Source: Amphiscolops sp. MND2022
Lineage: Eukaryota
Direction: 5' to 3'
Assembly: GCA_964187785.1 (NCBI GenBank)
Contig: OZ076409.1
Coordinates: 12,836,001 to 12,900,000, forward strand
DNA length: 64,000 nt
A model generated the notes under the pieces. That model ran no database searches and was not told the DNA's origin. It saw only the letters and a list, made by a program, of their open reading frames with translations. This document shows positions 28,382-59,876 of the stretch, piece after piece. Position numbers and translations under genes: made by a program. Position 1 is the stretch's first letter, and the number at the start of each line of letters is the position of its first letter.

Positions 28382-29833
28382 GATAGACATATTCACTCAC
28401 CATCATCAACCACAAATAACTCATCTTCTAGTTCAACACATTCACTCCAAAAACTACCTGAATATACAGCATATTCAAACTCAGATACAGACATACTGGA
28501 TTCCTCATCCTCAAATCCCAGTCCATCCGCTCCATATACTCCTGATAGAGTACCAACAAGACCCACCAATACATCTATAACCCAAACTCAAACACTAGTA
28601 ATAACAACTCAATCACAACCTATTTCACGAAATCTAACATTTGCAGAAACAAATTCACCAGTTTCTGACTCTAATGATGAAACAGTTACAACACCAAATA
28701 CACAAGATACTTCAAATATTTTAAATAGACCTCCTCTTCCACCAATCACTACCACTAGTTCCGTTCATATCCCTGATCCCAGCTCAGTTCTACAATACAT
28801 AAACTCTTGTCCACATAAAGTTCCAACCGCAACGAAAACAAAAAGAAAACCTCCTTTACCTACATTACCACAAGACCTTAATCTACCATCATCAAGTCAT
28901 ACTCCAATAACATTCTTACCAGAACCTTCATGGAAGGCACCAGTGAAGAAATCACAATAACACCCAATTCCTTCACCATCTGAACTAAGTTCATTCACAT
29001 TTTCTCAAATATGTCCCAAACTTGAATTAGAACGTGTACATTCAACCACTACATCTTCTTTACCAGATTTATATCATAAAGACAAAGATTCTGACTCAAC
29101 TGCTAGTACTAGAGTACCAAGACATAATTATAACCTTCGATCTCAACAACAAAGAAATTCTCAGGAATTACAATCTTTAACTAGTTCAAGTACAAACTCA
29201 AGACTACTTAGACAGCACGCCCAACCCAGATTAGACACTTCTTCTCTTTCCTCATCCCAACCCACTATACCATCTTCTTTATCACTACCATTTCAAATCA
29301 CATCAGGATTTGAAACAGCTTCTCTTCTTTCTGAAGACCCAGTAACTATATCAGATAGCGCAGCTAATTTTTCGCGAGTTTACTCACCTAGTTCAATAGC
29401 ATCAAACTCTTTTATACAATCACCTGAATATTTTTTAGGAGATTTCTCAAGACCTCCAACACCAAACCCTCACGAATATCCCATCCGTGTTAATTCAAAA
29501 ATTGTTCGTACGCTTAACGAAGCTCCTCGATACACGGTCGTACCTGCAAGATTTATAAACAATAGTTCACTCTCAACTCAAAGAAAACAAAGAGAATTAC
29601 GAAGATTACAAGAACAACAACTCACTTTAAAATTTGAAGTAGAAGTCACATTCAACTCCTCAGGACCTCATCCATTCTCTTTTTCAACAAGAGTAGCACA
29701 CAAAACAACCCCATCACCATTCATAGTCACATCCATTTCTTACCTTTGTGACGCAGAATTACCTGAGATTAGAACAGGACATATAAACTTTTTTAATCCC
29801 TACTCCGGACTTAATTATAGAACAATATTTTAA
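28382..29833 (+). pseudogene. Ser/Thr/Pro-rich reading frame (~480 codons, one internal stop) between pol and env; no start Met seen
   Basis: By manual translation the frame is open apart from TAA at 28958; it is the same frame as env and ends at a 19-bp tandem duplication near 29816-29853. Confidence 0.6.
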
Positions 29834-29866
29834 CTATAGAACAATATTTTAACCAATGTTTTAACC

Positions 29867-32522
29867 ATGAACCAAATCACCTTTACCTTATACCTAATAT
29901 ACATAATACAGGTTGTAAAATACACACATATAATACATATAGTTCACTCTTTAGTTCACCCTTCAACTGTTCCTAAAGTTGACACAACCAATTCCGAAAA
30001 TCATATTTCAGACCAAGACCCTAACATTTTAAACTTGATGGTATCCCATTATGATTGTGCAAAACAAAACAATTTAAGGCAATTCAGTTTCTTAAATGTC
30101 GAACCATGTAAACAAGCACCCTCAGATATACAACACACAAAAACCCAAGCAACAGTTTATGTTAGAGCAAAGGCCAAAAGAATAAAAGCCTTTAAATGCG
30201 AAGCATATTTAAAGACTGAAAAGGTCTGGTGTTCACGAACATTCACATCTAGTAGACGATATGATCGTTCACAATGGGGACAAAACATATTAGATCTTCC
30301 AAAAATATTGGACCCTGTTGAATGCAAAAACATGATACGATATTTAAACGCGACTGATAGCGAAGAACTGAACAATTACAATATACAAAGTTCGTTCTCA
30401 TTGTTCGACAGTAGTAACTATCAAAACACAATTGAACGAATTCAAACACCATTTAGAGTAAAAAAATTAAACACATGGCATATTGGAACCTTCGTATTCG
30501 ATGAAAATTATCCCGACTGGATAGTTAATGTTACACAAAATACATACTCCAGATGTCGATCCGACCAAGAACATTTAATTACCCGACAAAGTTGGAAACT
30601 TAGAATTGTTAACACCGCAATAGATTATGACGATAAAAACAATCAATTAATACATGACGGACACATATTACCATGCTATCATTCAGACGGATTTTGTAAA
30701 CCAACGACAAAAACTCCATATACATTAACATGGTTTGATGAAAAAAATTGCCTCATATTTCAACTTCAAGAATTCATTGGTAGAATGACACGAATCAAAG
30801 ATAGATATTGGATAGAAACCGATACCTTCATTGAAACTTCAAACATCACACAAAAACTTCAAACTGAAGGAATACAAGGAACAAGATATCCTAATGTGAA
30901 AACACCACAATCAAAAGTAAGCAATCCAAGCCTTTCTCGATTTGAAATATACCCAATTGCACAAACCTTTTGTGGAAAACCTGAACCATTATTCTCAACA
31001 CAATATGATGACATCTTTGTTACATACTTAGATGGCTTTGATATGAACACAGGACTACCAAAACCACACTCAATAAATGACCAATCAATTAGTGGAAACT
31101 TAAAATATGATGACTCAAATAAAAAGTATATATTCCCTGCATTGAATATATCAAACAATTTCGCCTTTTCAGATTATGACGCCCACATTAATACAAAAAT
31201 TGATTTCACAATAAATCATGTATTTAAATCCATGACAGTACAAGAACAAAACACCCTTCATACAATATGTGAACTGGAAAGAACTCAATTGTTAACGATC
31301 CTAGCTATGTCAGTTAAAAATCCTCAATTAGCCGGTTTTCTTTTAACTGGAAATCGTAGTAACTTTCTCTACGTTGAAGGATCTACAGCATGGCTGTATG
31401 ATTGCCCTCATTTTATATCACCACTATACAAGGCAGATAAATGCTTTGATAGAATTCCCATACACTACAGAGAAACGATAATGTATGTTAATCCTATAAC
31501 AAGACAAATTTTTAACTATGCAACACCAATTGAATGTGGAAATAACCCACAAAATATAATCGAATTAGACCCAGATTCTAACGACGGAGATTTTCATGTG
31601 TTTACACCAGAACCACTCAAACGAGAAGCACCACAAATGTTTAAACTTACCCAAATTAAAACAACAATCACTCCTAATATATTTACCGCCCAAGATGCCG
31701 TTATATACTCGAATGCAGAATTAGATCATTTCTGGAACAGAGTATTATTCGCTAAACATTCAGACACAACCCTTCAATTACTTGGAAAATCATTAAGCTA
31801 TGATTTCATCACAGTGCATAATGATAAACATTCCTACTCAGCACATAATCCTTATAATCATTTAAGGATTGGAGTACATGACCACTTGTTAAACCTCTTA
31901 CCATTTTTCAACCCTGACTGGTTCAGTCAAGCATTCATTAATTTCTTTGGATATCCATGTTATGTTTTAACACAAAGTGGAATTTATTTTTCAACATTTC
32001 TTTTCTCTTAGAAAAGTCTTAACATTTTTACTCAAATTCTACAGAACAATTAGCATAAAATACAATCTCCAAAGCAACATTTCCATTTTGAGTTCAATAG
32101 CCCATGGATTTTTTAATATAGTTACATCGGAAATGGTAACCGATTTAAACAATACAGGAAAACGAAAACGGATATATACTAAACACAAAATTACAACAAG
32201 TGAAATGGATAATATCCTATTGCCGGAAAAAGAATTAAACAATAAACGAAGATACTCTGATAATGACTCCCCTTATTTACCTCCTAAATATTCCAGTAAG
32301 AATTCAACATTTCAATCACCGCAAAAGACACACTCAACTACTGTCAACGATATTAATTCTCAGGACTATAACCCAATATTATCAAATGTAAAAGCTGTAC
32401 CGGAAAGTCCTGCTAAAGTCTTTACAAAATTTAATCCCTCCCAGCTAAAAAGCAATAACCAAATAAACAAATTAACTCCAGAAAAAGTTCAAAAATTATC
32501 AACAAAATTCTTCTCAGTTTAA
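29867..32522 (+). CDS. env: Envelope glycoprotein, class III fusogen-like (chuvirus G / herpes gB type); frameshift near 32005
   Basis: Hydrophobic N-terminus; Cys-rich ectodomain YDC...CEA...CELER.QL..ILAM...P..AG.LL.G...EG..AW...CP...CFDRIP...PITR...C; hydrophobic C-terminal segments and a tail in ORF 31977..32522. Confidence 0.8.
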
Positions 32523-32885
32523 CTTTCATTCAAACCCAAATTCTCACTCGGACCAGTCTCTCCTTTTCAACTCAACTGAAAAATTCACTTGCCTATCACA
32601 ACTCAACTCTCAAACAGAAGACTTCAACTGGATCTTCAGTCCATCTAAAAGACCGAAATTACAGACGTTTCTATTCCTGGAATAGATGCCACTGTGATTG
32701 TTGATGTTTTCAACCCACAATTGTTTCAGTTATTCTCATATTGTAAGTACAATTTAAACTTCAATTTTAACAAACAATTTAATGGATAGAAAAGACATAA
32801 CAAAAATTTTCCTTATTATTAGAAACAGTATAATCAAACGTTATAATCATTATTTTAGCTCTACAAAAACACGCAAGTTTAAATA

Positions 32886-34178
32886 ATGGAATCCTTGCCC
32901 GAAATTGATGTAGTTAATTCTAACCCCTCTGAATTGCTTGCATCCCCTTTGAATATAACTATTCAACAAAATGTTAACGAAGATAATAACTCATCTTCAG
33001 ACTCTCAAGATCCCATGGAAACTATTCCTATTGAACAAGTAGATCATGTTAACGCAAGATCTCAAAAAAGAAAGTACCCAGATATAACTGCAGAAAAACC
33101 TTTTATGGAATCTGGCGCTTGCCCTCCTTTCATAAAACCAGTTAAACAAGATGAAGATAGAGATTGTGAAATAGTTCCTATTCTCTCATCAAAACAATTT
33201 ACCTTCCAATCTCAGTTAACCTCGTTATATATGATTCCAACAAAATACAAATTCATCATCAGAGAACTTAAAAATGATTATCATACTTCAATCGCTTCAA
33301 AATTGATCACCCCATATGATTGGTGGTTAAACAAAAAAGTGAAAATTTTCTCACTCCAATACAATTTCCTCAGACCATCTCCATATGATCTTCGAACCGA
33401 AAAAAATGATGCAAATTTTTTGCCATACCAAATCAAAAAAGCTCATCACATGACTTATCAGAAGTTTCTTCAATACAAAGAGCCCGATAATTATATATTC
33501 TTCAATTCCAAGTATACGTCGCCATTTACTTTCAACTCAGAATATTTGATAGATTATACCAAAAAAAGAGGAAAACTTAGAAATTACGATCCGCTTAAAC
33601 AAAGTTTTCTTTTCCTTCTAAATGATAACCCAAAAAGACAAATCATTGTACCACAAGAATACCTCATTCTGAACGACGATTCGTTATTACAAGAAGATAT
33701 ACCTCAAAATATATCTGAGCCTTTTCCTCCACTTCAACATATAGCCTCTCAACCTCTGGGAGACTGTGAATAATCTTATTTTTACGCAATGACCAAAAAG
33801 GGGTATTCAAATAATGAATTAATTTTCATTATTTTTCACCTGCTTTCACTTCTTACAAATGGAAATCATAAAAAACACAAAAAGACAAAACAAAAATCGC
33901 CAAAGAAAACCAAAAATGACATTCCTCAACCACAAAGTTTTCGCCCAACGGACGAATTACAGAAATATACAGAAATTCTGAACATCATAAAACCTTATCA
34001 TCACCCGAACCGAGATATTCTCATAACAATCGCCGAAATTGTAAATACTCTTGAACAAGCTCGACGCATAATACAAAATATCGTATTTGATACGACAAGA
34101 ATTAGCCAATCAGCTTTGTGTATTCGCACATCATTAGACGAATTCAACTACACAATTGAAAAAATGCACCGATCTTAA
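32886..34178 (+). pseudogene. Element B accessory ORF 1 (~430 aa, one in-frame stop at 33771-33773), function unknown
   Basis: ORFs 32886..33773 and 33789..34178 share a frame and are 15 nt apart; acidic N-terminus, basic KKHKKTKQKSPKK tract. Confidence 0.7.
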
Positions 34179-34701
34179 CTGGTAATTATGGGATAATCAC
34201 TTTAAATTGTTAACACTTATCACTTAATCTCTTAACAACCTGTCAAAATTAATTGAGTCTACACGCATATGCCTGCTATGCATGATTATATTACACGCTT
34301 GATATTAAAATACTCTTTTAAAATAAAATAATACAAAAATTTTCAATCGCGACATGAAAATTTTTAACAAAATTCCTCAATTGCTCCTCCTTTTAATGGA
34401 CCGATTTCAACAAATAAGAACTTATATGAAACATTTTTAAATACCCTTCAAAAGATTTCCAAAATACATCAACTTAATTCTTAAAATTAAAAAGTTATAA
34501 CATCACAAATTACATCAAAAAAATGTCAACTACGAAATTCTATTTTCAAAGGAAACTTTATTGTAAACAAACTAATCTATTTTAGGTGAATATCGTCACA
34601 ACTGCTTCGTCAGCATTCCTTCCTCCTCTCAAGCCGTCCATCCAATCAGAAATCCAACGTATCTTCTACAACTTTCAACAAATTTCATCATATTCTTCAA
34701 T

Positions 34702-35178
34702 ATGACGACACTTCATTCTGGTGACACAGACTGCCCGATAGCTCCTCTTCTTTCAATTCCTTCAGCTCGATTGCGATCCTTGATTCTGAAAAAGCATTTA
34801 ACAACATTAAATGCGCAGCTCAAAACAGATAAAAAGGCAGACCCTCATCTTACAAGAATGATATTGCTCAATATGTTCCAAATATTCCAAATTACACGAA
34901 AAAACTTTGACCAATATCTTCAAATTCATAAACATCCTGATACATATTCAACTCAACGAGACGCCACTGCCCAAACAGAGCATACTACCATCAAGCCCAA
35001 ACTTTTAGTACGAAACTTATCTAACAGAATACGTTCTGAAATGGAAAAACAACGTCTAAATTTCTATTGGCCTTCAGACAATCACGACGATACTGATGAA
35101 GAACTTCAAAAAGACCCTCCAGAAGCACTTCTAGATGATAATTACCCATACAAAACAAATACCTACGTCTCTTTCTGA
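34702..35178 (+). CDS. Element B accessory ORF 2 (158 aa or more), function unknown
   Basis: Sense ORF inside the element; preceded by a CTAAT...TTTTAG acceptor-like site near 34586. Confidence 0.5.
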   Translation: MTTLHSGDTDCPIAPLLSIPSARLRSLILKKHLTTLNAQLKTDKKADPHLTRMILLNMFQIFQITRKNFDQYLQIHKHPDTYSTQRDATAQTEHTTIKPKLLVRNLSNRIRSEMEKQRLNFYWPSDNHDDTDEELQKDPPEALLDDNYPYKTNTYVSF

Positions 35179-36216
35179 TATCAACAGATGACATCAACAG
35201 CACTCGTCCACCCCCATCTTCGAATCCAACATCTACAACGATTGATCGTCACAGCTCAGCACCCGTTCTTCACAACGTCATCGCCGCCCAACAGCTGACC
35301 CATCTTCTTCCATCTTCCAATCTTCAATCTTCAGCCATCCAATTCTCAGCCGAAGATGATTGATAATCAATAATAAAGGAAACTCAAAGAAAAAACATTG
35401 TCCATGAGAATATTTAAAAAGATTCAAACTCATCTAATATTTAAAAAGATTCAAACTCATACCGAAAACATTCGCAATGTATTTATCATTTCAAATGTAA
35501 TCCCCACCCATATTTATTTGCCCTTAAAGTCTTTTAATCCACACCCGTACCGATATTTATTTGCTTTATTTTTAAAGAATAATTAATAGTTATTATTTTT
35601 CAGTGCTATCCTATCCAAAATTAACATATGTTAACAACAAATCTTTTCAAAATTCAACAAAACAAGTTCAAAAATAGATCAAGCACATTGTTCAAATCAG
35701 ATTCGAATAATGACAGACCCAAATTCTCAAAGTTTTCAACACTTGTTACATAACAAACCCGCCAAAGTTAATCACAACCTGATATCTTTTCAGACAGTTT
35801 TCACACTCGATAAAAAAATCTTACCAACAAAAATTTTTCAATGACTCTTTGACCTTTAACTCGTATGATGTTTGCTCACGTTTGTTCAATGCGAAGTTCA
35901 TTCAAAGACTTCAACAGAGGCATAAAATTGAGCATCTACCAGTTCAAAAAACAAGCCGACGAAAGCATAGTGAAAAAACACTTTGACGCTTTTTGAACTG
36001 TAGTCGCACCTACGAGGTGTCAATCAAAATTTTGACAATTCGAGGTACACCAATGAGTCGAACTTACACCACTCTTAAAGAGACTTTTGCCAATCATCCA
36101 TCAAATGAAAAATGTTAACTAGCTGAAACGCTAAGAACATTTAAACAACATTTTTTTCTCCATTTTAATTACCGATGCTATTTTAAAATTTTATTTTATT
36201 TAAAAACCGGGATGGA

Positions 36217-36348
36217 TGTACTGACCTACATTAATAACCAATAGTATTTAGATGTTTATAGAATGTTCTAGAATGTACATTTATTTATTATTGAATGACT
36301 GTAAGTCTCTACTCCCTCAGAGAGAGAAAACTAATAATCAGTATTCAG
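36217..36348 (+). repeat. Truncated 3' LTR of element B
   Basis: Matches 17993 onward up to ...AATCAGTATTCAG, then identity ends; preceded by AAAAACCGGGATGGA. Confidence 0.92.
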
Positions 36349-38241: not shown

Positions 38242-40629
38242 TGTTACGAATTACGCTATGATTTTCGTTTTGGGTAGAATTAATTCACACTGTTTTCGTC
38301 GGAGTATAGAAGCTTCTTGTTTCATTTTCTAGTTCTTCCGATACATGGTCTTTTACATTTTCTCTCGTTTCAGATCTCAAGAGTTTCAACATTTCCTTTT
38401 GGGACTCGAGCAAAAGAGTCTTAATCTCAGACGTTATCTCTTCCTTCAGAGAGGACCTTATGCTTTCCAAGAAACTATTTTCTACTCTGGGGACTTAGAC
38501 CTCGAAGGACCTGCTAATTCTACGTTTTGATCTAAAGGATGAGAATTTTCTGTGTTTATTGGCGAAACAAAGCCTTCACTTACATTATCATCAACTTCTC
38601 GCTGGATATTCTTTCTCTTTTGGCTTCGTGTTGTAGACATGTTGTTGAAGAAAGATTTATTCTTGAAGAATTCAATTTTTTCTTTCTGATTTTCAACAAA
38701 GTTAGAAGAATGAGAATAGTTTGAGAACAACAAGTTTGGGACAACTAGGTTGTAGCACTGGTAAAAGACTGAGTCCCTTCGAAAAGTTTGCACTTCCTAT
38801 ATATACCCTCCTAGCATCATCTGATCACGTACATATTTCCAAATTTTTTAAAATATTAGTCATTTCCTGTTTTTTCGGTGAAAAAATCATCAAAATCCCA
38901 AAAGTGCGTCGACATTTCGTCAGTTTTTAAGACACGGCAATTTTAATTTAGCGTTAGTCATCAAACATGATCATATCATTTCATCCGGGCGTCCTTTTGC
39001 TTCCTCCCAAGCAGGAAGTAGATATTACTTCAGTCTGTCAAATCGGAAATGCTTCCCTGTTTTACTGCTTTGGTTCGCGGGAAATTGACGCTAAGATGAC
39101 GCTGACGTGAACAACAAATACCTGATTTTGAAATTCAACTTGATCAAATGCTATGACTAATTCCAAAGTGTGATTATTTGAACGATGCTAAGATGATATT
39201 TTATGAATTTGGACTCACTCTTTCGCTGAAATTAGAATTAAGAATCATGGTATCAAAATAATACTCCATTAGCAAATTTATCATGTCGCGACAAGTGCGA
39301 CAAGTTTTACAAAATTAACAGCAACGTTTGTTAAGTAGCAACGATAATGCAATGCATTTAATGGATAGCAACGATGAATTAGTATGGAAAATATGATTAC
39401 GATCATAAGTATAGCGTTCAATATCAGATGGTACAAAATGCCAAGTATATGAAAATACATTTTCAATACAAAATATACTTTAGTTGAAAGTATAAACTGT
39501 GACTTTCTGATCATTTTACTATGAACTCCCATAGAGGAAAAAATGGGTTGAGTAAGGGAAATCCCTTGTTGTTGAGAAGTGCAAGACGATTAGTTAACGT
39601 AGATTTAAATCAACCTATATGTGTCAAAATCTACCTTAAGTTATTACCTTAAGTTATAGGAATACCTCCTCTATGCTTATCTTACGAATTGAGATAGCTA
39701 GCATGCATTCCCTTTTAACATAATAACGACTTTATTGCGATGAAACCTTGACTGATCTTGCAAATTTATCCATTTTGTTCAATTTCATAAACTTGGCAGC
39801 GTCATGTTGACGAGTTTTCTTGACAGAACTTTGAGCTTTATAAACTTGTCAACGTCATGTTGACGAGTTTTCTTGGCAGAATAGAGATTTGACTAGTTTG
39901 ACGCAATGCTGACGAGTATTTTAGAAATGAGTCTCTCGCTAGCTGCCGGAGCAGTGACGTCACAGTGGCGGTAAATTGGAATGATTTTTGGTAATGCTAT
40001 TAGTATAGGCGGATAATTGGAATGATTTTCTGGTACGCTTATGCGAGGCAGTGACGTCAATTGGTATACCTTCAAACTTGTCTGCGTCTTACTGACGACA
40101 AATATACATATATTCTTATTTTTTCCGCTGCTTTGTTTGCTCAGCGCAATATTGACGTCCTAAACCACACTAATTGCTGTTCAAAGAGTAATTAAGCTGC
40201 CTTTCTTAGAAAAGGCTTAGTTTCTTCGGCGTGCCATCTCAGTGTATTTTCTATTTTAGATCTGATTGATGTTTTTTAGGGGAATGATTTCGACTACGTT
40301 TTTGTTTAGATTAGGCTATGATTTCTTTGTTTTAGAACGTAATTTAATTTAGCTTTCAGGTGGCGAATGTTGCTATTTTGACGTGACAAAAACGTTTCAA
40401 CCGGAAATGTAAGAATCATTTCAAAGCGCTCATTCATTGTAACTAGTTTCATTTGAAATTTCCGTTGATCAGACGTTCAATTTGTTTTTTGTTTTCCTAG
40501 TCACAGTTTATTTGTTAGTTTTAATAGTTAAAGTAAGTTTTTTCGAACCTCGCGGTGCAGCTGGGGCCTCTCCCGAAGCCAATTCTTAAACATCCACAGC
40601 ACAGCCCAGTCCGGGAGCTGACTGTGACA
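38242..40629 (-). repeat. 3' LTR of element C (2388 bp)
   Basis: Direct repeat of 51952-54327. Confidence 0.97.
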
Positions 40630-41272
40630 GGGCCACTGTCATAGGTTTTATCGTCCTCCCAGGGAACCTCGGCTGGTAGAAAGGGTATTGCAGCTCGTAG
40701 ACATTAGGGTCAATTGCTTGGTTCCTGGATGGGGGCATTATCGCCGGGCCTCTTTCTTTATCTAGATCGTTTAGCGATTCTTTCTTCTGTTCTCCCCAAA
40801 CTTTCAGAGGTCCGCGGGGGGATTCAAAATAGGAACATGCATCATCCTCCGTTGCCTGTCTTATGAATTCAGCGACTTTACTGCTAGTCATGGAGGACAT
40901 TTCTTCTTCACAAGGTTTCTCTACTACGAACACGTCTGAGTTCAGCGAGGGATCAGGGCTTTCTGGCGAGTCCGCAATTTCTTCTTCGTTTTCCGACTGA
41001 GGGTACTGTCCCGATTCAACTGTTTCAAAACTCGTGTAAGATTCACTGAGCTTCATCCTCTTACACTCGGTTTCCAGTGAATTTAAGGAGAGGTCTAGAA
41101 ATTCTTCTTCATCTGCTGTGGCTTCCGCTGACGAGTTTAATATTTCCACTATCAGTTTTGGGTATTTCTTGTTATTTTCTGGCAGTGGGGTAGAGGATCT
41201 TGTGATTTCTCCTTCTTCTTCACTCGACGATGAAATGTCAATTAGTTCATATATGTCCATTAAATTGCTCAT
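40586..41272 (-). CDS. Element C acidic Ser/Glu-rich accessory ORF (228 aa from ATG 41272), ending inside the 3' LTR
   Basis: Uninterrupted ORF; ELIDISSSSEEE motif; low complexity. Confidence 0.65.
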   Translation of the reverse strand: MSNLMDIYELIDISSSSEEEGEITRSSTPLPENNKKYPKLIVEILNSSAEATADEEEFLDLSLNSLETECKRMKLSESYTSFETVESGQYPQSENEEEIADSPESPDPSLNSDVFVVEKPCEEEMSSMTSSKVAEFIRQATEDDACSYFESPRGPLKVWGEQKKESLNDLDKERGPAIMPPSRNQAIDPNVYELQYPFYQPRFPGRTIKPMTVALSQSAPGLGCAVDV

Positions 41273-41379
41273 CTTCTTTATTTGGCTTTTCTTCGACTGT
41301 TGACCGTATTTTAATTGTTCCACAATGAATTTCAGCTTTAATTTGGATTAAGGAGAATATTGGAAAATTCCCTCCATTC

Positions 41380-41700
41380 TGATTGGCTGTTCAAATATTT
41401 TAATCTTTTTAATCTTCAGATGTTGACGTTATGTCGACATTGCATTTTTATTGGCTGTAAATTGAAATAACTTAGTTAGCAAAACTTGTCAACGTTATGC
41501 TGACGTCATTTTGTTAGCTTGGCTAACTTTTTGATTTTGTCACCGTTTTGATGACGTCATTTTAGGTAATAGGATTAATTTCTTAACCCTGATAACCTTT
41601 TTGTTGACGTTATGCCGACGTCAATGTCGTTGGTAATTAGCCAACTTTCATTTTTGTCACCGTTATGGTGACGTCAGTTTGGTTGTTGTTTTCATCATTT
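41380..41700. promoter_or_regulatory. Candidate internal bidirectional promoter of element C
   Basis: Lies between two divergent ORFs; ATTGG (CCAAT) boxes near 41382 and 41450; TGACGTCA at 41501, 41552 and 41669; repeated GTCAMC-N5-GNTGAC palindromes. Confidence 0.55.
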
Positions 41701-41725
41701 CTCTTTTCCAGATTGCCTTTGAAAG

Positions 41726-44700
41726 ATGTCTTCCTCGCGCCGTGTTTCTGGTTTCCAGAGCGGTCACGATACCCAATTCGTCTTCTCGGAAGGAGAAGTT
41801 CGAGACAGTGAAGCCGATGCCCCTGCTTTGCAGCTTGCTGCTGGTGAGTTTTCATCCCTCCATCCATTAAGCTTTTGTGAATAATATTCTCTACAGATAG
41901 GCTTTTTCTGTTTTATATTTTCACAGCTTAGATTTTCTGACGCGTCGTTATGGGATGTTTCTTTGTTGTTAGATCCAACGTTCTCTTCTCCTTTGGCTGG
42001 GGCTTCTGTCTCCCATCTCGAAACCTCCCTTCCTGCTGATCTTTCTGGAATTTCAATTGAACCCATTGCTGAGTCTACTCATCGCGTTGGCGATTCTTCT
42101 GTCACTGTTGGCGCTGCAAATGCTCCCAATCCATCTCCAGCTTGTTCTGATTCAGATGTTCCTCTGGCTGCTGTTGCTAGAAGTGTTAATCCTTCTGGGA
42201 CAGTTGCCACTCGCGGAGGTGAGGGGTCTCCCCCTACCCAAGAGAATGTTGTCGGGAGTCAGAAAACTGTTTCGCCTCGGTTTTCATCCTTCTTGCACAA
42301 ATTGCAGACGACGGACGATGATGATGATCGCCTCACGGGGTCTAAGCATGGTGAGTTGATTCGATTATGTATGCACTTGACTGTATGGGTCTTTGTGGTT
42401 GGGGGGTTTTTTTGTTGTTGTTGGGTGTTGGAGTTGTATTTGCTGTTTTAGTGCGGTTGGTGGTTCCTGACAAGGGTGGTTCCGGAGTTCAGTCGACGTC
42501 AAGGTAATGTGTTTCACTGGTACCTGTTGTTGCCCCTCCAGTCGTTCGTTTCTCCTTCGCTGACAGTGGGGAGGAGGATGCAGAACCTGGCTCATCGCAA
42601 CGAGTGAGCAATCAGCGTCCATCGATGGATGTTGATAACGTGTCAGTGGACCCCTTTGTTGCCCGTAAGTGAAAACCATTGTGTTTGGTGTTTGTCTTGG
42701 GATTTGCATATGAGATAGATAGGTCTTTCTTTTCGTTTTGAGAATCAGTTGCTTGTTTTTCGGTTGTTCTCCTTTTTGCCTTGTCATTCTTTAAAATAGT
42801 TAGGGATAGTCATGTTATGTTGGTGAATTTATTGTAGGTTTTGAAGAGCTGCTCAGTCGTATGGAGTCGACTCTCGAGGTCGCTGAGCGGGGTCGCAAGC
42901 GCGTTTATAGTCCTCGCAATCGTCTTCGTCGGGATATGGTTACTGGGAATCCTAAATACGAGCTCTTCGTCAGTGGTTCCAGTACTGGTTCCGACAAGCT
43001 GTTCCATTGCATGATATGTCAACGAGACGTTTCAATGGAATCGCGGGGTGCCGCCGAGTTCAGCAGGCATTTCTTCGGGAAACGACATTGGCAGCTTGAT
43101 GTTACGTATCGAGTTCAGAACGGTTTGCCAGTGTATAATCGCCTGATGGACCCGATGACTTTGAGTGAGGTAGAATTGGAGGAATATCGTAGTCGGCCCA
43201 GCAAGGGGAAAAACGAGGGTTTCAGTTTTCCTGAAGACCTGCTTCCTGCCTGTGCCCAAATAAACTCAAGTGTGCCCTTGATGTCGATGATTAACTGCCT
43301 CATTGAGTTGTTGCGATTTGGAGGAAGCTACCTTCTGTTGCGGAAGTTGTGGGGGTGCTTTCGAGCGACACTTGGGCCTGACAGTCCCTTATACAACCTA
43401 TATTGGAGTCGTCCTGAGTCTCTGGTGAGTACTGCATTTCTTCGTCTTTTAGTGTGTTGAACATTCAGGTTATGAGTGGGAAGTTTGGAAGTTTGATTGT
43501 CGTTTTTGGGTATTTGTGTTGGACGTGTGGTGAACGTCGGGTGTTGTATTTTAGTTGTTGATTTTCCAAGCTCTGTTTCCGCGTGTGTTACGTTCCCTGA
43601 TGTCCCGGATCGCCGCTTTTCGGGAATACAGCATGTTCTTCATCGAGAGTGGTGAAGATCATAATTGCCTCGTCCAAACCTGGGATGATCATACGTTAAT
43701 GAGTGTCTGTGTGCGAGTCGAATCAGTGGGGCAGCGTGTTCCTGAGGCTGAGTTGGCCGGATTGTCACGTGTCATTGACGGTACTTCCTCTTGTCAGATG
43801 CCCTTGTGCTGTCAGGGGTGTAGTCCGACGCTGTTGCGTATGCTGAGTGACAATCGAGTGGACGGACGTGAGTTCGTCGTGTACCGTGAGTTCAGTGAAG
43901 GAGGTGTTCTTGCACTGTTATGAGCTGGCCCATCAGGAAGTGTTTGGTGGTTTGGACACTACTGCCATGATTGACTTCCTCATGCTCCGATTACGTGGGG
44001 CTGTGCAAGAGCCGTGGTGCGAAGGTGTACCTTGTCTTCGCCGATGCATTGTCGCTGGACGTGTTGCGTTCGCAGACTTGCGTGATGTCGTCACTGATTT
44101 GATTGCTGTTTGGGCATCTGTGCAGGATTTCGTCAAACATACTGTCCCTCGTCATTTTAAAACCGGAGCTGGCAGGGTAATTCATATTTGTTTGATTTTC
44201 TTTTGTTGTTTTGTTGTTTTCCTTCTCTCTCTCTCTCTCTTTTGTGTTGTCATCGTTTGTGTTGCTAAGTTGATATATGATGAATTGCATTCTTATTTGC
44301 AGATGTGTGGCACTGACTGGCATATCTATTCGGAGATTACGAGTGAGTTGCGACTTGGACTTCTCCTGCACGTCCTCGATCTTTGTGAGTACAGTTTCTT
44401 GATATTTGGACTTTACCGGCAGAGTGTAGTTGTATGTTGTTTATTGGGTGGTAGTGTTAAAGGAATCCGTCAGTCTTGTGTCAGGTATGATTTAGGTATT
44501 GTGTTTTAGATCATTGCACCTTTAAGAAACAGTTGTCGTGTCGAGCTGACTACGCCTTTCATGCCAATGTGGAAATTTGTCAGTTCGTGCACTGCCCGTT
44601 ATCACGTAGTCGCAAGATTGGTTCTCTTCCAAGTTTGAATTCGTCGGAGGAGTACATGGACCCGCAGAAGCTTGATGGTTTTGAGTGAATTGATTCCGTC

Positions 44701-45759
44701 GATTTCCTCAGAAGCCATGACTTTGGTGCTGTTCTGCGACGTCACAAGGGTGGTGAGGGCCGTGCGTTTCGGGATCAGTGCCTCAAATTCGTCGATCGCT
44801 TTGTTTGTGTCATACTGCGACAGCAGCCTGTGACAGGAGATTTCTCTCAAGGAGTTTATGCATTTTGCCCTGAGCTTTTGTTGGAGGGAGACGACCATCA
44901 CATGACGGACTTGTTTCGTAAGCTTGTCCGAGTATTGGAGCGGTGTGGTGTTGTGTCGTCGTTGGAATCAAAGTCTGCTGTGGAAGAGTACGCTTCGTTT
45001 GTTGTTGTTGTGGATGCTCGGGCACGACACGCTGGTTCCAACAGCTGTGCCGAGGCTATCGACGACGTTCGTCAGTATTTGCTGGACGATTACGGATTCT
45101 TAGCTCGCAAGTCGTTGTGTCGGGTGTTCAAGTTGTGCTGCCTTGTCGTCCTGAAGCCACGGGTTGACTTCCCTGCAGTTGACATTGGCCTCAGTGATTG
45201 TAGAGTGCCTGAACGTGTGGTTGCAACGTGTATTCGAGGAGTGCAGAGCAGCGTTATGTCTCCCGGGTTTAAGCTGGGATCATTTTTTACAAAGTTCACT
45301 ATGGGCGAGGTTCGCAAATCAATCGCTGCTGCTAGTTCCTTCATGACTGCTGCTGATTTCAATCCGTGGGAAGGTATATGTGGTGAGAATCAATCTGCCT
45401 TTGTTGACCGTTATAGAGATGTGTTCAAGAAACAGGTCAGTCGCAAGAGAGGTGGTGTCATTGGGCAGTCCCTTGGTGTGGGAACATCTAGTCGTGATGC
45501 TGCGGCTGTTGATGGCGAAGGGTGTTTTTCTCAGTGTGAGAGTCTGACTGCTTCCACCGTTTCTGCCCCAGCTGATTCTGCCACTAGTACTTGTAGTCTG
45601 TTTGGTTTGAGTAAGGTGCAAGTACATCAGAGCATAGCTTCCTTACTTGGTCGAAAGAGAGATGCTGAAGAGGTTGGTGAGTCATCGTCAAAGAAGGATA
45701 AGAAAAGGTCTAGACAGTCAGTTGTTAAAGATGATGAGTCCCGTTCGAAGAAAAAGTGA
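41726..45759 (+). pseudogene. Antisense 7-exon cargo gene of element C (~1,080 aa), zinc-finger protein resembling an inactive hAT transposase
   Basis: Exons 41726-41843, 41973-42350, 42452-42664, 42838-43424, 43555-44176, 44303-44384, 44510-45759; all six introns GT-AG and phase-matched. Lesions: TAA 42505, frameshift ~43900, TGA 44686. Confidence 0.82.
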
Positions 45760-45962
45760 GCTTTGTCGTCTTGGATTTCCAAACTTTTGTAGCGTAGTTT
45801 ATATTATTTATTTGTTTCTGTATTTGTATAGTGGACTGTGTATATTATTAGAAGAAAACCGGACGTATAGAGTTCGGCTGGAGTCATTCACTTTGTAGTA
45901 TGTCTATAATTGAAAATCGTCAAATCGGTTCGATTTGGACTCCAGATATTATCTTTTCCTTC

Positions 45963-48900
45963 TTAGAGAGTCGTAGTTATAGCGTCGAGTCGTCTGAAAT
46001 CAGGGTTAGCGTTAGGTTTAGGATTAGGTCTCAAATTGTACTTTGCTGTTTTTCGCGGGTTATATCCGACAACTGTAGGCGGTGATCTTGGGGGAATAGG
46101 TGGACTTTCAAGGGGTGGGGGGCGGCGTATGTATGGGTTATCCCCCACGTCTGTAGTAAGATTTGAAAAATCCGGAGACGGTGGCGCCTCGTCATTTATG
46201 TCATCGGTTTGGTTTCTTGGCATTTGAGACGTCGTGGCTTCGTCATTCGTATTTGTCACTTCTTGTATTTTTGCGTGTTGGTTGTTTTCTGTACTTTTTC
46301 ATGTTTTGTGTTCATCAATCTGTTTTCCGAAATCCATTTCCCACGATACCGCGTACCACTCGTTGTGTGACACTTTGACGTCTGGATCGGGAAGATATTC
46401 GTTTGCTCGTACTGTGACGTCAGGCACGCGTTGCTCTGGCACGTAAGGTCGTGTGCGAATTCTGTGTAATGTTTGTGTATATCGTGTGCCAATTTTTTGT
46501 ATCGTGTAATTATTATTTGAGAGCACTTCGATTACTATGTACGGTCCCGTCCAGATACAATCTTGAAACGCAAACTTTGTCGATTGATTGTCGGCTTTCG
46601 GATTGAGGATGTAGCAATAATCATTTAGTTTGAGCGGAGCTGCCGACGCTTTACGGTCATAATACTTTTTGTATTTGAGGTAAGACAGCATGATGTTGTC
46701 TTTCGCTGTCGCTCGCACTTCATCGATTTGTTGTTGTAGCTGCTCTGTTATATCTGAATTTGGCGTAGTTTTCCACTTTGGCTTGATGCCTAGTTTTAAA
46801 TCGAGGACGCTGTAGGGTATACGTCCGTGGAATACTGTAGATGGTTCGCAGCCTAGGGTTTCATGATACGTTGTATTATAGTTCATGACTGCGATCTGAA
46901 CGTATTTGTGCCACATTGATCGTCTTTCACCCGTCGATATTTTTAGTGCAGTTTTGATTGAAGCGTGTGTCCTTTCTAGGATGCCAATCGTTTGTGCATG
47001 TTTCGTGGATGCATGGCTAATTTGGATTTCGAGTATGTGCATTATTTCTGCGACGACTTCTGATCTGAATTGAGAGCCTTTATCTGACAAAATTAAAGTT
47101 GGCAGATATGCGTGTCTGGTCATGACGTCGACAATGCATCGTCCAATTGCTGTGACGTTCTGTGTTGGGTATGCGAATAGATATGGGTATGCGAATAGAT
47201 AGCGTGAAAATACATCAATCATCGTAACAATGTTTTGGTATCCTGCAGATTTGGGTAGATTCGGTAATATGTCAATCTCGAGAATGTCTTCCGGGCCCAG
47301 GACATGTTCTGTGTTGTTGATCATCTTTGGTCTGATTTGGCTGTTGCTGATTCGTTTGTATTTGATGCAGTCTTCACATTGCATTACCCATTGTCTAATT
47401 CTTTTTGCTAAGCTAGGGTAGTAATACTTTGATCGACATTCTTGGATCCTTTTTGTGATCCCTGGGTGTTTTCCCATTTGTCCATGGATTGCTTTCAGGA
47501 GTTCTGTAATCAAATGCTCAGGGATTAGTATTTGGTTGTGTGTGACTTGACCGCATTCTCCGTAGTATTTGCGCATTAGTACTCCATCTTTGACTATGAG
47601 TCTGTTTTCGTGGACTAAGAGGCGTTTGGCTTTCGGATCTGTTTGTAGTAGGTGTTTGTCGTATTCTTCGCAGATCAGTTTTCTCTTGATTGCTTTGAAA
47701 ACTAAGTCTGCGTCTTGTTCAACTCTAATGCGTGCGTCTTCCTTGATTGCCCCAAAGGTGTATGATGCCTTGTTTTTTGGGATTGGAGTTGTTTCTTTTA
47801 TTGACAGCTTTATTTTCGTCGTCTTCTCATCTCGTGCATTTTGTATTGCTTGTTCCGTTTGTAGAAGAATTTCCTCTTCTGTTTCAATCGTTTCCTCTGG
47901 GAGAAAAAAGAGTTGTTCTTCATCTGCGACGTCTGTCGATTGAAGGTTTACCTGTATTGGTTGGATCGTAATATCGTTTCGGATTTTTAGTTCAACTTTT
48001 TCCTTGGGGTTAAGGTCAATTCGCGACAAGAAGTCGGCAGCAGTGTTTTGCGTTCCTGCTACGTGCATGATGTGAAAATTGAACTGTAGTACGTAGTCAC
48101 ATGCGTTCCATAGTGTGGGGGGAATTGCTTTTGTTTGAAAAAACCTGGTTACTGATCTATTGTCGGTCATTATGAGGGTTGGTAGGGTTGTTTCCCACAA
48201 TATGTGGCTATATTCTAAAAATGCGTGGTAGATTGCCAGAAATTCTTTGCACTAAATTGACATCTTCAGTTGCGCAGGTGAAAATACTTTTGATCCAAAT
48301 GCAACAGGCGCAAAAGTTTTCTTTTTGGAGTTGAGTTTTTTGTCGTTTTCTTCTTCGATCATTAGCGCATAACCTGAGGCGCGAAAACTAGCATCCGTCA
48401 TTAGGACGTATTGTCGTCCTGTGATTGGTTGTTTGAGGGCTAGTCCACATGCTTCCGCTAGTGCTGCGTTGATCGCTTTGTAGTGATCTAGCAGTTCTTC
48501 TGTGACTTTGATTTGTTTGTCAGCTTTCAGTAGTTCGTAGAAACCAAGTAGCTTTTCTGACAACCGCGGGATATAGTTGCGGTAGTAGTTGACAAAGCCT
48601 ATGTATCTCTGTACTTGTTGCTTTGATTTCGGGAATCGTACATTTGCTAAGAATTTCTGGATTTTGTGGTCTTGGGGGCGATTCCTTGTGGGGTGATCGT
48701 TCTTCCAAGGAATTCGACCTCGGTTACTCCAAAATGGCATTTGTCGATGGATAGTTTGAGTCCTGCTTGTCTAATGCACTCGAAGACAGCTCGGATGTTT
48801 CGTATCAGTTGCGTCACGGAGTTAGCGGCTATTCCAATGTCGTCCACATACTGCGCGCATTGGTCAGCCTTGATTACTTTGTCCAAATATTCTCTCATGA

Positions 48901-50912
48901 AACTAGAGAATGCTGACAATGCTCTGCTCAGTCCTTGTGCCAGGCGTTTATATGCAAACGTTCTGCTTGCGAAGTTGAATGCCAGCATTTCGATTGATCT
49001 CTGGTCAGCCATTTGCAGACAGTGATATGCTTGAGAGCAATCTAATTTACAGAATAACCTTTTCCCAGCTAGGTGTTGAGCTGCGTCTGACAGGGTGCTG
49101 ACTGGGTGGTTGTTGTTGATGTAATCGTCCGATATCAGTGCGTTGATTTTTCGCAGGTCGACCAGTAAACGTAGTTTACCGTTTGGTTTGCGTTGTGCGA
49201 AAATCGGGCTGGCATATTTTGAAAATGGTAATGTCGTGATTATACCATACCTATGCATTAGTGCCAAGTTCGACTGTTAGGTCTTCCTTGAGGTTGATTG
49301 GCACTGGCAGGCTCTGTGTGTATATGGGTCGTTCGTCTTTTGGCGTCAGTTTCACTTTGAAGCTATTATTGATACCATGGTCGAGTCTGTGACGCACAAA
49401 GATGTCGCTGTATTCAACTATCGTTTGCTCCAGCTGTTTCTTGTCGTTTCCCTCAATCTGTGATCCTTCCCAGTTGAACATGTCAAGGAAGTCTTTCCTT
49501 GATTCTGGATCTTTGGTGGGATCAAGTTGTTCTTTTTTTATGAATTCTCTGATTTCTTTTAATATTCGCCTTTGTATTGGCGTGTGTTCATCTTCATTTC
49601 CCGGGTTTTCGGGTGTTGGGAACCAGAGGTTTTCGTCATTTTGTTCATTGTTTGTGGATTTCATGAGCTCATTTACATACATGAGGGTGTCATCTGGATC
49701 TTGTAAGGTGGTCAGCGTTGCGACGTCTACAGGTCGTATTTGTTTGGTGTCCTCTGGCCTCAGGATTTGTAATTCTGCCAATTTGGTGTGGTTTTTTATG
49801 GTGTGCGGGAAATCTGTCAACTTGGCTATTCGGAGGTTGATTCGTTTGTTGTGAGCTGTGGCTAGTGCTGGTGCAACGATGATGGTGGCTGTTTCATCAA
49901 ACTGTGGTAGCGGTTGTACTGCCCCTGTGATGTCGATTGCATTGGTGGTTATGACTATTGCATTAACGGTTGTTGTTTGTTGTGGCGGCAACGTCTGGTG
50001 CCCTTCAGCCATGATTTGGAGCGGTTTGGGGTTACGGTTTTTCTTTTCATCTGTCATGGCTAATGTCATTTCGACATGGGGGAAGGTGATGGTTCCATTG
50101 GCTGTATCTATCACTGCTTGGTGGTTTCTCATGAAGTTCAGTCCGATTATGGGGAATGACGTCTTTGATAGTATGACAAAGGTGTCGGTGAACGTGTATG
50201 TTCCGATATTGAATTGAATGTCTGCAGTGGCAATTGGTTGCTCTAGTTGTGCGTTCGCACATTCGATCTTGAAAGGGGGTTGTGGATACTCCTTTATGAC
50301 ACAATTATCGCTGTTCATTTTGATGGCGTTGTAATCGGACCATGACATGGCATTGATGAACCCTCCTGAGTCGACAAGGCCGTCCATTGTTAATTCGCCA
50401 AATTCCAGTGGCAAGTAAAGCATTCGTCTTCTGTTCTTGAGGACTATTGTTGAGTGGAGTGGTATATAAGTGTTACCGTCTTTTTCAGTTACATATTCTT
50501 TATTTGAGTTGAGGAAGGTGGGGAAGTTTTCGTGGAAGATAGGTGACCCGGTGGAGTCGTGTTTATCTTTCTCGGACATTTGCGACGAAGTGCAGGCGTC
50601 GTGGACGTTTTCAACTGGGTTTCCTTGGGTCTGAGCAGCGGGTTCTTTAGTGGTGATGATTGGTTGAGAGGATGTTTTTTGGTGATGTTGGCAATCGTTT
50701 CTGTAATCCTGATTGTTTGGAGGTGTTACCTTTTGATCCTCTTGTGGCGGGCGTCGTTTCATAGATGCGATTGCTTGTTGTCTCAGCCATGCTTCTGATG
50801 GGGTGCCTGAGCACTCTACAGTCGTGTCGTTGGTATACGTTGTTGGGGGTTCTTGTGGAGAATATGCCCTCGCGTCTACTGTTTCCCCAAAGCGCAGGCG
50901 CGGCGTAATTAG
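45963..50912 (-). pseudogene. pol: Element C pol (PR-RT-RH-IN), disrupted by frameshifts (~49262, ~48672, ~46300) and a stop (48252)
   Basis: LVDSG protease; YASPIF..RK..GKLRLLVDLR and YVDD RT; TDAS RNase H; H..GKHPG...CEDC, DIL/SDKG/ERTH integrase; WTGPY. Confidence 0.95.
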
Positions 50913-52351
50913 TTTTTTGATTCATCATCGGGTTGGTTTGTTGAGTGTGTGACGGAGGTGTCCCTTTTACTTTCTTGTGTGTTGTGACGCTTAGGTCGTG
51001 GGTCGTTGGCAGTATTGGCTCCGTTCCAACAATCCTCTGTTTTGTGGGGTTTGCCGCAGGTATCGCATCTGGGTGGTTTGCCTGCACTGTGGTTGGTTGG
51101 TCCGTTGTTTCTTCGGGTTTGCATCCATTTGTCTCTTTTCATTTTACGACATTCAGCTTTATGATGTCCAAATTTGTTACAATAGAAGCAGTACCCTTTT
51201 TTAGTAGTTTGAGCGGTAGTTTCCACTGATTTAGGTTCAGTTTTTGTTTGGGCAGGTTCAATTTTGTTTAAGGGCACTAACGTTACCTCGTCTGGCGCTC
51301 CTAGTCCATTGAGACGCATTTCCCTTTCCAGGTGAAGTACTATGTCGTTATAGGGTTTGTCTTCGAGGTATGCGCGGTTTAGTATTTTCTTGACGTGGTC
51401 TGGCATTTTGGCGTATATAGCCTTGTCTATGAATTGCTGTGCCTCTGTTCCAAAAGCTTCTTTTGCAGTTCTTTTTAGTACATCCAGGAATTCGTGGAGT
51501 TTTTGTGTCGAGGGGTCAAATTTTAGTGCGTCCCATTCGCATCTAGCCTTTGCCATCGACAGGTAGTCCCCAAATCGTCGTTTGAATATCGTTATATACT
51601 CGTCTAGTGAGTCTTTCTTCGAGTCTTCAATGTTGCAAAAGGCTTGTAAGGCGTCTCCCCGGAGTAGGGAGTGGAAGTAGTTTATCTTTTGTATTTCCGT
51701 AAGCTGCGGATACATTTTGATATTATTCCAAAAGAGATCTTCAAAGAGCTCAAATTTTTCGGATTTCCCGTCAAAAGTTGGGAGTGACGCCGTTAGAGCT
51801 TTTGGCATGGGTAGCATCGTGGTGTTATTTTGGTCTGGGGCGAACAAGGTTCGCGTTATTGCTGGGCGTTCTTTTGACGAGGGTTGGCTTTGAGATCGAA
51901 TCTTCGTTCTCTTGGGTTGATTGGTGGAGTCGTTTAAAACTCCTGTCACCATGTTACGAATTACGCTATGATCTTCGTTTTGGGTAGAATTAATTCACAC
52001 TGTTTTCGTCGGAGTATAGAAGCTTCTTGTTTCATTTTCTAGTTCTTCCGATACATGGTCTTTTACATTTTCTCTCGTTTCAGATCTCAAGAGTTTCAAC
52101 ATTTCCTTTTGGGACTCGAGCAAAAGAGTCTTAATCTCAGACGTTATCTCTTCCTTCAGAGAGGACCTTATGCTTTCCAAGAAACTATTTTCTACTCTGG
52201 GGGACTTAGACCTCGAAGGACCTGCTAATTCTACGTTTTGATCTAAAGGATGAGAATTTTCTGTGTTTATTGGCGAAACAAAGCCTTCACTTACATTATC
52301 ATCAACTTCTCGCTGGATATTCTTTCTCTTTTGGCTTCGTGTTGTAGACAT
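50909..52351 (-). CDS. gag: Element C gag: LTR-encoded N-terminal part (52351-51998), in-frame TGA at 51995-51997, then an intact 347-aa ORF from ATG 51952
   Basis: TFDGKSEKFELFEDLF core; knuckles CFYCNKFGHHKAEC and CDTCGKPHKTEDC; the upstream LTR ORF is in frame across 14 sense codons. Confidence 0.9.
51940..51951 (-). promoter_or_regulatory. Primer binding site TGGTGACAGGAG of element C
   Basis: Immediately follows the 5' LTR; identical to the element A PBS. Confidence 0.85.
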
Positions 52352-54327
52352 GTTGTTGAAGAAAGATTTATTCTTGAAGAATTCAATTTTTTCTTTCTGA
52401 TTTTCAACAAAGTTAGAAGAATGAGAATAGTTTGAGAACAACAAGTTTGGCACAACTAGGTTGTAGCACTGTAAAAGACTGAGTCCCTTAGAAAAATTTG
52501 CACTTACTATATATACCCTCCTAGCATCATCTGATCACGTACATATTTCCAAATTCTTTAAAATGATTATTCATTTCCTGTTTTTTCGGTGAAAAAATCA
52601 TCAAAATCCCAAAAGTGCGTCGACATTTCGTCAGTTTTTAAGACACGGCAATTTTAATTTAGCGTTAGTCATCAAACATGATCATATCATTTCATCCCGG
52701 CGTCCTTTTGCTTCCTCCCAAGCAGGAAGTAGATATTACTTCAGTCTGTCAAACCGGAAAAGCTTCCCTGTTTTACTGCTTTGGTTCGCGGGAAATTGAC
52801 GCTAAGATGACGCTGACGTGAACAACAAATACCTGATTTTGAAATTCAACTTGATCAAATGCTATGACTAATTCCAAAGTGTGATTATTTGAACGATGCT
52901 AAGATGATATTTTATGAATTTGGACTCACTCTTTCGCTGAAATTAGAATTAAGAATCATGGTATCAAAATAATACTCCATTAGCAAATTTATCATGTCGC
53001 GACAAGTGCGACAAGTTTTACAAAATTAACAGCAACGTTTGTTAAGTAGCAACGATAAAGCAATGCATTTAATGGATAGCAACGAGGAATTAGTATGGAA
53101 AATATGATTACGATCATAAGTATAGCGTTCAATATCATATGGTACAAAATGCGAAGTATATGAAAATACATTTTCAATACAAAATATACTTTAGTTGAAA
53201 GTATAAACTGTGACTTTCTGATCATTTTACTATGAACTCCCATAGAGGAAAAAATGGGTTAAGTAAGGGAAATCCCTTGTTGTTGAGAAGTGCAAGACGA
53301 TTAGTTAACGTAGATTTAAATCAACTTATATGTGTCAAAATCTACCTTAAGTTATTACCTTAAGTTATAGGAATACCTCCTCTATGCTTATCTTGCGAAT
53401 TGAGATAGCTTGCATTCATTCCCTTTTAACATAATAACGACTTTATTGCGATGAAACCTTGACTGATCTTGCAAATTCATCCATTTTGTTCAATTTCATA
53501 AACTTGGCAGCGTCATGTTGACGAGTTTTCTTGACAGAACTTTGAGCTTTATAAACTTGTCAACGTCATGTTGACGAGTTTTCTTGGCTGAATAGAGATT
53601 TGACTAGTTTGACGCAATGCTGACGAGTATTTTAGAAATGAGTCTCTCGCTAGCTGTCGGAGCAGTGACGTCACAGTGGCGGTAAATTGGAATGATTTTT
53701 GGTAATGCTATTAGTATAGGCGGATATTTGGAATGATTTTCTGGTACGCTTATGCGATGCAGTGACGTCAATTGGTATACCTTCAAACTTGTCTGCGTCT
53801 TACTGACGACAAATATACATGTATTCTTATTTTCTCCGCTGCTTTGTTTACTCAGCGTAATATTGACGTCATAAGCCACACTAATTGCTGTTCGAAGCGC
53901 AATTAAGCTGTCTTTCTAAGGAAAGGCTTAAATCATTCGGTGTGTCATCTCGGTGTATTTTCTATTTTAGATCTGATTGATGTTCTTTTGGGGAATGATT
54001 TTGACTACGTTGTTGTTTAGATTAGGCTATGATTTCTTTGTTTTAGAACGTAATTTAATTTAGTTTTCAGGTGGCGAATGTTGCTATTTTGACGGGACAA
54101 AAACGTTTCAACCGGAAATGTAAGAATCATTTCAACGCGCTCATTCATTGTAATTAGTTTCATTTGAAATTTCCGTTGATCAGACGTATTTTTGTTTTCC
54201 TAGTCACAGTTTATTTGTTAGTTTTAATAGTTAAAGTAAGTTTTTTCGAACCTCGCGGTGCAGCCGTGGCCTCTCCCGAAGCCAATTCTTAAACATCCAC
54301 AGCCCAGTCCGGGAGCGGACTGTGACA
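51952..54327 (-). repeat. 5' LTR of element C (2376 bp), with TATA-like box (52508-52515) and AATAAA (52367-52372)
   Basis: Direct repeat of 38242-40629. Confidence 0.97.
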
Positions 54328-59871: not shown

Positions 59872-59876
59872 GCTTG

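Follow-up and report, generated by a model that had tools for sequence, protein, structure and literature searches.

Our analysis of a 64,000-nucleotide stretch of contig OZ076409.1 from Amphiscolops sp. MND2022 (hereafter the window) asked whether the DNA between two divergent genes of a retrotransposon (41380-41700) is an internal promoter, and whether the palindromic motif that it has in common with the long terminal repeat (LTR) belongs to a circuit in which the element regulates itself through a zinc-finger protein of its own. Both ideas had been put forward in a sequence-only reading of this DNA. The features on which the answer depends are collected in Table 1.

Table 1. Coordinates of the element, its accessory genes and the motifs discussed (window positions; "." denotes no assigned strand)
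Feature	Position	Strand	Remarks
3' LTR, TGT...ACA on the element strand	38242..40629	-	97% identical to 51952-54327
U3	about 40629-38773	-	within the 3' LTR
Weaker LTR dyad copies	38633, 38908, 39084, 39593
Three main U3 dyads	39795, 39848, 39897 (array 39795..39914)	.	spacing 53, 49
Two free-standing CRE-like TGACGTCA sites, U3	39955..40059	.
Sense accessory ORF, acidic	40524..41272	-	frame of the window copy ends early, at 40586
CCAAT boxes 41382 and 41450 (weaker 41359), with conserved non-coding block behind the first	41359..41454	-
Five internal dyads	41422, 41488, 41539, 41603, 41656 (array 41422..41676)	.	spacing 66, 51, 64, 53
Putative 5' exons 1-3 of the cargo gene, Ser/Pro/Asp-rich	41726..42664	+	tentative boundaries; donor-like sites 41844, 42351, 42665
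Cargo finger exon, C-x2-C-x16-H-x5-H	42810..43457	+	open in the window copy; 163 clusters
Further cargo exons, helical domain and basic tail	43555..45759	+	68 clusters (last exon)
gag-pol, Gypsy order, in several broken pieces	45963..52534	-	Pfam and reading frames
5' LTR	51952..54327	-	dyads also here: 53506, 53559, 53608

The element and its two accessory genes

The stretch lies within a minus-strand Gypsy LTR element (38242-54327). Its LTRs, both of about 2.39 kb, have TG...CA ends and are flanked by the 5-bp target duplication AAAAC, and gag is followed by protease, reverse transcriptase (RT), RNase H and integrase in the Ty3/Gypsy order, as determined using Pfam (protease weak, E 0.015). 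The gag frame starts within the 5' LTR, as it likewise does within the LTR of a second element of the window, 9020-17131. A primer site that starts with TGG, TGGTGACAGGAG (51921-51951), adjoins the 5' LTR, with a short inverted repeat after it, while the bases beside the 3' LTR had no clear purine run or polypurine tract. From the letters of the 3' LTR, we take a site near 38800 to be TATA-like and TCAGTC at 38772-38767 to be initiator-like. The LTRs differ by 55 substitutions, i.e., 28 transitions and 27 transversions, five of the 55 being at CpG, and the observed/expected CpG ratio is 0.8-1.2; because CpG is not depleted and the LTR differences are not CpG-biased, a role in DNA demethylation like that of VANC is unlikely. 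Twenty of these substitutions crowd into one 200-base bin (40042-40241), which suggests a recombined patch, and the U3 contains a 45-nt tandem pair.

Between pol and the 3' LTR there is an accessory cassette that is composed of a plus-strand gene, antisense to the element (approximately 41726-45759; the cargo gene), and a minus-strand sense ORF that begins at 41272. The divergent layout that had been read from the letters was supported, as conserved coding units (120 protein clusters for the sense ORF and 163 for the cargo gene) stand head to head with 453 bases between their start codons. Of the two start codons, the sense ATG is fixed by homologues, being shared by 213 of the 257 anchored proteins (334 fetched); the cargo ATG at 41726 is a candidate.

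The sense ORF is conserved at 29-99% identity across its clusters and had no significant family in Pfam. A C-x-C-x8-H-x-C tail is present in 44 of the 69 relatives that reach the LTR part, and its coding sequence is the initial ~100 bases of the U3 (40524-40629; 54227-54327 in the 5' LTR). Since the start of the U3 encodes a conserved Cys/His tail, this end of the LTR is under coding constraint, which brings to mind the overlap of nef with the U3. Near the N-terminus, 79 of the 120 carry a word that we take to be SIM-like.

A profile search for the cargo gene yielded 459 representatives at E 0.001. One of its relatives, the 890-aa P0310, gave four collinear matches to the window (E 1e-22 to 1e-15), and the introns are supported by the sibling gene calls, which start and stop at the splice sites of the window. 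The putative exons 1-3 contain an open frame of 188 codons, and the first exon with homologue support is 1.1 kb away from the dyad array. The window copy is broken by a frame change at about 43850-43945 and a stop at 44686. Of the 46 proteins aligned, 40 had all four CCHH ligands, as did 87 of the 120 matches listed; the finger helix is variable, with 57 distinct words among these 87. In the Atlas, the finger was placed near BED/Spin-doc fingers (0.85-0.87) and the body of P0310 near hAT-type families (0.81-0.85; eight of the ten best named matches in one clan), in both cases under the Atlas's own bar of 0.9. Pfam gave no significant family for the cargo protein and no zf-BED in 46 members, and TRP28 (PF04195) was absent from the window pieces and 25 relatives. 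Searching the PDB by sequence gave no matches for two cargo alignments and only E >0.4 for P0310 and a composite alignment; the fold searches reached best Z scores of 4.8 and 7.4, with helical bundles only, and Foldseek found nothing at E 0.001, the ZBED1 finger appearing at E 3.2 (model pLDDT 53); blanks of this kind exclude no fold. From the leads in the Atlas, we judge a hAT origin of the CCHH-finger cargo protein to be somewhat more likely than not.

In addition, a finger match and a sense-ORF match of another family carry one shared tag for a 3,779-base contig. In the sibling gene call P0047, the cargo helical domain is joined to pol in one reading direction; as cargo and pol are antisense to each other in the window, this fusion indicates a rearranged copy. 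The finger exon, the sense-ORF alignment and the RT had no match in viral contigs, and the search for siblings in prokaryotic genomes came back without a match. The metagenome locus L001 (E 2e-4), a candidate sibling, was discarded because it reads as a phage contig.

The dyad motif in the LTR and between the genes

The identity of 22 of 24 bases between 41482-41505 and LTR positions 39842-39865, from which the idea of a shared motif had arisen, is exact. When the intergenic stretch was shuffled 60 times, the best 24-mer that it shared with the LTR agreed at 17-20 bases every time. The recurrent form that had been described, GTCAxC-N5-GxTGAC, holds at 39848, 41488, 41539, 41656 and 53559; at the other positions this form fails and only a looser GTYRAC pair fits. 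The dyad is best written as two GTYRAC-like hexamers that are separated by a 5-base spacer, lie 11 bp apart and have up to two mismatches. With this pattern, which was formulated after the sites had been seen, five dyads were counted between the accessory genes (0.17 expected) and seven in the LTR (0.71 expected), and none of 200 shuffles was as high in either case. Elsewhere the dyad is at background: the sense ORF has none, the cargo gene has one (1.8 expected) and gag-pol has three (2.3 expected), and the flanks are close to it with three and six (3.3 and 4.4 expected). In the third element of the window it is slightly raised, at nine versus 4.9 (3 of 40 shuffles). A spacer of five gives 12 hits, and spacers of zero and eight score too, with eight hits each.

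A weight matrix that was built from the five internal copies alone picked out four LTR sites that exceeded 12 bits, where 0.06 were expected and 0 of 500 shuffles did as well, and parts of the same motif ranked at the top of an unbiased scan of spaced 4-mer pairs. Once the dyads were removed, the internal stretch was no more similar to the LTR than were shuffles, 98 of 200 of which scored equally high. The likeness to the LTR is thus confined to the dyad, which is what is expected of selected sites. The counts support the claim that the LTR and the intergenic stretch have a motif in common, and the palindrome array of the element is real, non-random and, it seems, family-specific. We consider it likely that the dyads are functional. 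The main U3 array is 1.0-1.1 kb upstream of the TATA-like site of the LTR. In the internal array, the dyads take turns with inverted repeats of a second type, located at 41514-41528, 41629-41645 and around 41566-41590.

The element at 9020-17131 offers a comparison. It is Gypsy-related, with a gag that is 43% identical to that of the studied element over 128 aa, the primer site TGGTGACAGGAG in common and a similar TATA context. It contains no copy of the GTYRAC dyad. GGCC-N6-GGCC-like dyads occur there instead, with 11 in the LTR (0.26 expected), two in the 3' internal region (0.12 expected) and two in the gag region, and this array was also recovered by the unbiased 4-mer dyad scan; the same GGCC dyads are absent from 38242-54327, and the left flank has three (0.55 expected). 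As another dyad occupies the same two places in a related element, the layout appears to be common and the motif family-specific. No homologues of the cargo gene or the sense ORF were found in 9020-17131, and its use of another dyad therefore cannot be put down to another cargo; a different host factor may be responsible. The LTRs of this element are 99.5% alike and flanked by the duplication GCTTG, its gag was found and no RT was found. Another antisense gene may have left a remnant at 12179-12576, where there are short frames on the plus strand with a basic tail; a CCAAT box lies at 11444.

The candidate internal promoter

Some sibling proteins read through upstream of the sense ORF, and these were used as a back-translated trace of the promoter DNA. 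The first CCAAT box is reached by 13 of them, of which 12 are compatible with an intact box; it is read in one frame by 11 and in another by two, the ORF identity being 42-90%. Conservation of the box whatever the frame, upstream of the common start, points to a non-coding element. Dyad 41422 is reached by three proteins from two families. In P0667 (89%), the arm bases that are fixed by the code are identical in 6 of 6 cases, and the spacer bases in 1 of 2; in P0496/P0711 (52% over 110 aa), the corresponding values are 6 of 7, the seventh base still being compatible with GTYRAC, and 1 of 3. This small sample is suggestive of arms that were kept in two sibling families while the spacer changed.

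On the side of the cargo gene, the letters TCAGTT (41674..41679, plus strand), which we take to be initiator-like, overlap the last CRE and lie about 50 nt ahead of the candidate ATG. The conserved CCAAT-type element agrees with what is known of bidirectional promoters, in which CCAAT/NF-Y occurs (PMC4730256, available text). Taken together with the layout, these features indicate that 41272-41726 is probably an internal promoter with family-specific sites. A transcription start for the sense gene is very probable, and one for the cargo gene is predicted with less confidence. Beyond the element, dispersed and tandem repeats cluster at 55408-61550 (20-bp and 52-bp units and a 742-bp duplication), and within this cluster CCAAT-containing words that resemble 41382 occur at 56110 and 56447, and a CRE at 56994.

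Possible binders of the dyads

The explanation that we prefer, although tentatively and at slightly less than even confidence for the whole, is that the finger protein regulates its own element through the dyads. The segment 41272-41726 would serve the two-gene accessory cassette of a Gypsy family as its internal promoter, and host factors of the CCAAT/NF-Y and CRE/bZIP types would supply its basal activity both ways. The cargo introns would outlast retrotransposition because the gene is antisense to the genomic RNA. Its product, a CCHH-finger protein that is probably a disarmed hAT-type transposase, would bind the GTYRAC-N5-GTYRAC dyads, which follow one another at intervals of about five helical turns, both in the U3 and at the promoter of its own gene, and this binding may turn on the main element transcript or shield it from silencing. 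That the cargo protein is the dyad binder is possible rather than probable, and is suggested by the conserved finger, the weak hAT lead and precedent. The available text of the sources describes cooperative binding of BED domains to quasi-palindromic repeats (PMC10368747) and proteins of transposase descent that control the family to which they belong (PMC5735166; bioRxiv 10.64898/2026.08.24.746577).

The main rival to binding by the cargo protein is a host bZIP factor (CREB/ATF), for which the dyad would present paired CRE-like ACGT cores one helical turn apart; the shared motif would then make the LTR and the internal promoter fire in one cell type, and the cargo protein would act elsewhere. 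We regard this reading as credible but doubtful. The occurrence of TGACGTCA (CRE) in both places, which had been noted before, is correct: it stands at 41501, 41552 and 41669 between the genes (three versus 0.004 expected) and at 39955 and 40052 in the LTR (two versus 0.028 expected). A perfect copy closes three of the five internal dyads, and the two in the U3 stand alone. The sequence also exceeds chance outside the element (four versus 0.57 expected). With three of five internal copies ending in a CRE and such an excess outside the element, a host bZIP protein could explain much. ACGT half-site factors (GMEB-like) would be alternative host binders. CCAAT boxes lie beside the dyads, and Sirevirus motifs in the same layout were interpreted as sites for host stress factors (PMC2829016, available text). 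Moreover, the foamy virus Tas sites in the LTR and the internal promoter show scant sequence relatedness in the accessible text of PMC7390438, so the sharing of a motif is no mark of self-regulation. Against a host bZIP factor stand the three main LTR dyads, whose right half is TGACGAG and not a CRE, the proteins P0496/P0711, which hold the hexamer arms but alter the spacer that bears the first ACGT, and the unrelated dyad in the same places of 9020-17131. For Pax, nuclear-receptor, RFX, WRKY and p53 proteins, we know of no site shape whose spacing matches the dyad.

It is improbable that the arrays are neutral relics of ~52-bp tandem duplications and hairpin-driven symmetry, and that through template switching a short piece was copied from one of the two regions, U3 and internal, to the other. 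Spacings of 49-53 do occur in both arrays, the U3 has its 45-nt tandem pair, and the matching 24-mer takes in six flanking bases, but the flanks are non-homologous after removal of the dyads, the arms outlast the spacers in siblings, and the second element has the same layout with another motif. Still less probable is a nested hAT DNA transposon, in which the cargo gene would have been inserted and the array would be its left subterminal repeats, irrelevant to the retroelement. The hAT leads from the Atlas for both finger and body agree with such an origin, as does the presence of short repeated finger sites at hAT ends (PMC10368747, available text). However, comparison of 40630-41722 with 45701-45965 found no exact inverted repeat of at least 9 bases with an 8-bp duplication (decayed ends would be missed), only about 200 bases separate the cargo stop from the pol stop, the motif is in both LTRs too, and the cargo gene had a contig tag in common with the sense ORF in 27 of 116 cases, a proportion that lacks a proper null. 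The least probable explanation is an RNA element, in which the dyads would be hairpins of a 6-bp stem and a 5-nt loop that serve the genomic RNA in packaging, export or strand transfer. Both arrays would fall within the 3' end of this RNA, and on either strand 41380-41700 folds better than every one of 100 shuffles (z of -5.5 for minus and -4.0 for plus). Such folding is nevertheless expected of any DNA palindrome, each arm is self-complementary by itself, Rfam had no match for 38242-42000, and the case for this role is weakened by the G-U pairs, which are not biased towards the genomic strand (the 72 pairs of the 12 sites include 6 on minus, 10 on plus and 7 mismatches). A tRNA gene search found none.

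As for known systems, the foamy virus and HTLV-1 comparisons of the sequence-only reading are analogies only, and nearer precedents are the repeated motifs of Sireviruses, the antisense genes of Retand/Grande and VANC/TnpA. In the available text of PMC2829016, Sireviruses have family-specific CG-containing palindromes that cluster in the LTR, within its upstream half, and recur before an internal extra gene, as here, and an internal promoter was proposed. They are Copia elements of plants with a sense env-like gene, and that text proposes no element-encoded binder, whereas the present element is Gypsy with head-to-head genes and a candidate binder. The Sirevirus motifs go with the Copia order and a CGG-CCG core, in contrast to the Gypsy order and GTYRAC core found here, so that their system resembles the studied array in its working only. 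Retand, Grande and RIRE2 are likewise Gypsy elements in which a conserved antisense gene separates pol from the 3' LTR; this gene has the transposase-related domain TRP28, Grande gene23 has its own upstream promoter, and a regulatory role is suspected (PMC11963269, PMC7264820, available text). These are plant elements, while the gene described here is spliced, encodes a CCHH finger and has no Pfam match; it is accompanied by a further gene in sense orientation and by a motif that recurs in the U3. The role of antisense extra genes in LTR retrotransposons is an open question, and the accessible text of these sources names no target site (PMC7264820, PMC11963269).

In foamy viruses, as far as the text of PMC7390438 extends, there are two promoters, of which the internal one makes the activator of both, and the same circuit would hold here; the foamy internal promoter is inside env, sense and one-way, whereas the present candidate lies between divergent genes and would work by analogy, not homology. 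VANC of VANDAL and TnpA of Spm are element proteins that bind short motifs, which are amplified by tandem repeats in the non-coding DNA of the family (PMC5735166; bioRxiv 10.64898/2026.08.24.746577; available text). They belong to DNA transposons of heavily methylated plant genomes, in contrast to a retrotransposon without a methylation-decay signature. An internal promoter has been mapped downstream of pol in the Tor elements, which are LTR elements of the animal Oikopleura, but it drives a sense env, and the available text describes neither an antisense finger gene nor a shared palindrome (PMC4402516). On the features tested, 38242-54327 belongs to none of these systems. The layout is known from plant elements and foamy viruses; the combination seen here, a Gypsy element with a comparable head-to-head cassette, was not found in the open-licence literature that was searched.

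A broader scenario, which we find unlikely as a whole, is that Gypsy families in a large, probably animal, radiation captured and disarmed a hAT transposase and kept it as an intron-containing antisense gene. This would have become a family-specific transcription factor whose palindrome was amplified in the U3 and a bidirectional internal promoter. The facing SIM-bearing protein, the C-x-C-x8-H-x-C tail of which the U3 encodes, would join this factor in countering SUMO-dependent silencing. If it were true, dozens of families would constitute a natural finger-to-site code. The candidate DNA-binding domain and candidate site lie in one element, whose family has hundreds of copies and variable finger helices, and this co-location makes a retrotransposon-encoded, sequence-specific regulator a testable idea. 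If a host factor binds, a parallel to the Sirevirus motifs and two unnamed accessory protein families would be gained.

The window also holds other mobile DNA. An 18-kb plus-strand Gypsy-type element (17993-36348), strongly A/C-skewed, lies between 134-bp direct repeats and encodes gag, RT, RNase H, integrase and several other ORFs, with a Monjiviricetes-type fusion domain at 29840-32011 (Pfam, E 8.5e-23); this viral domain and the promoter words would suit an animal host. At 291-1774, pieces of a Pif1-type helicase are followed by an endonuclease/exonuclease/phosphatase domain (Pfam), an order that we take to be like that of Helitron-type elements.
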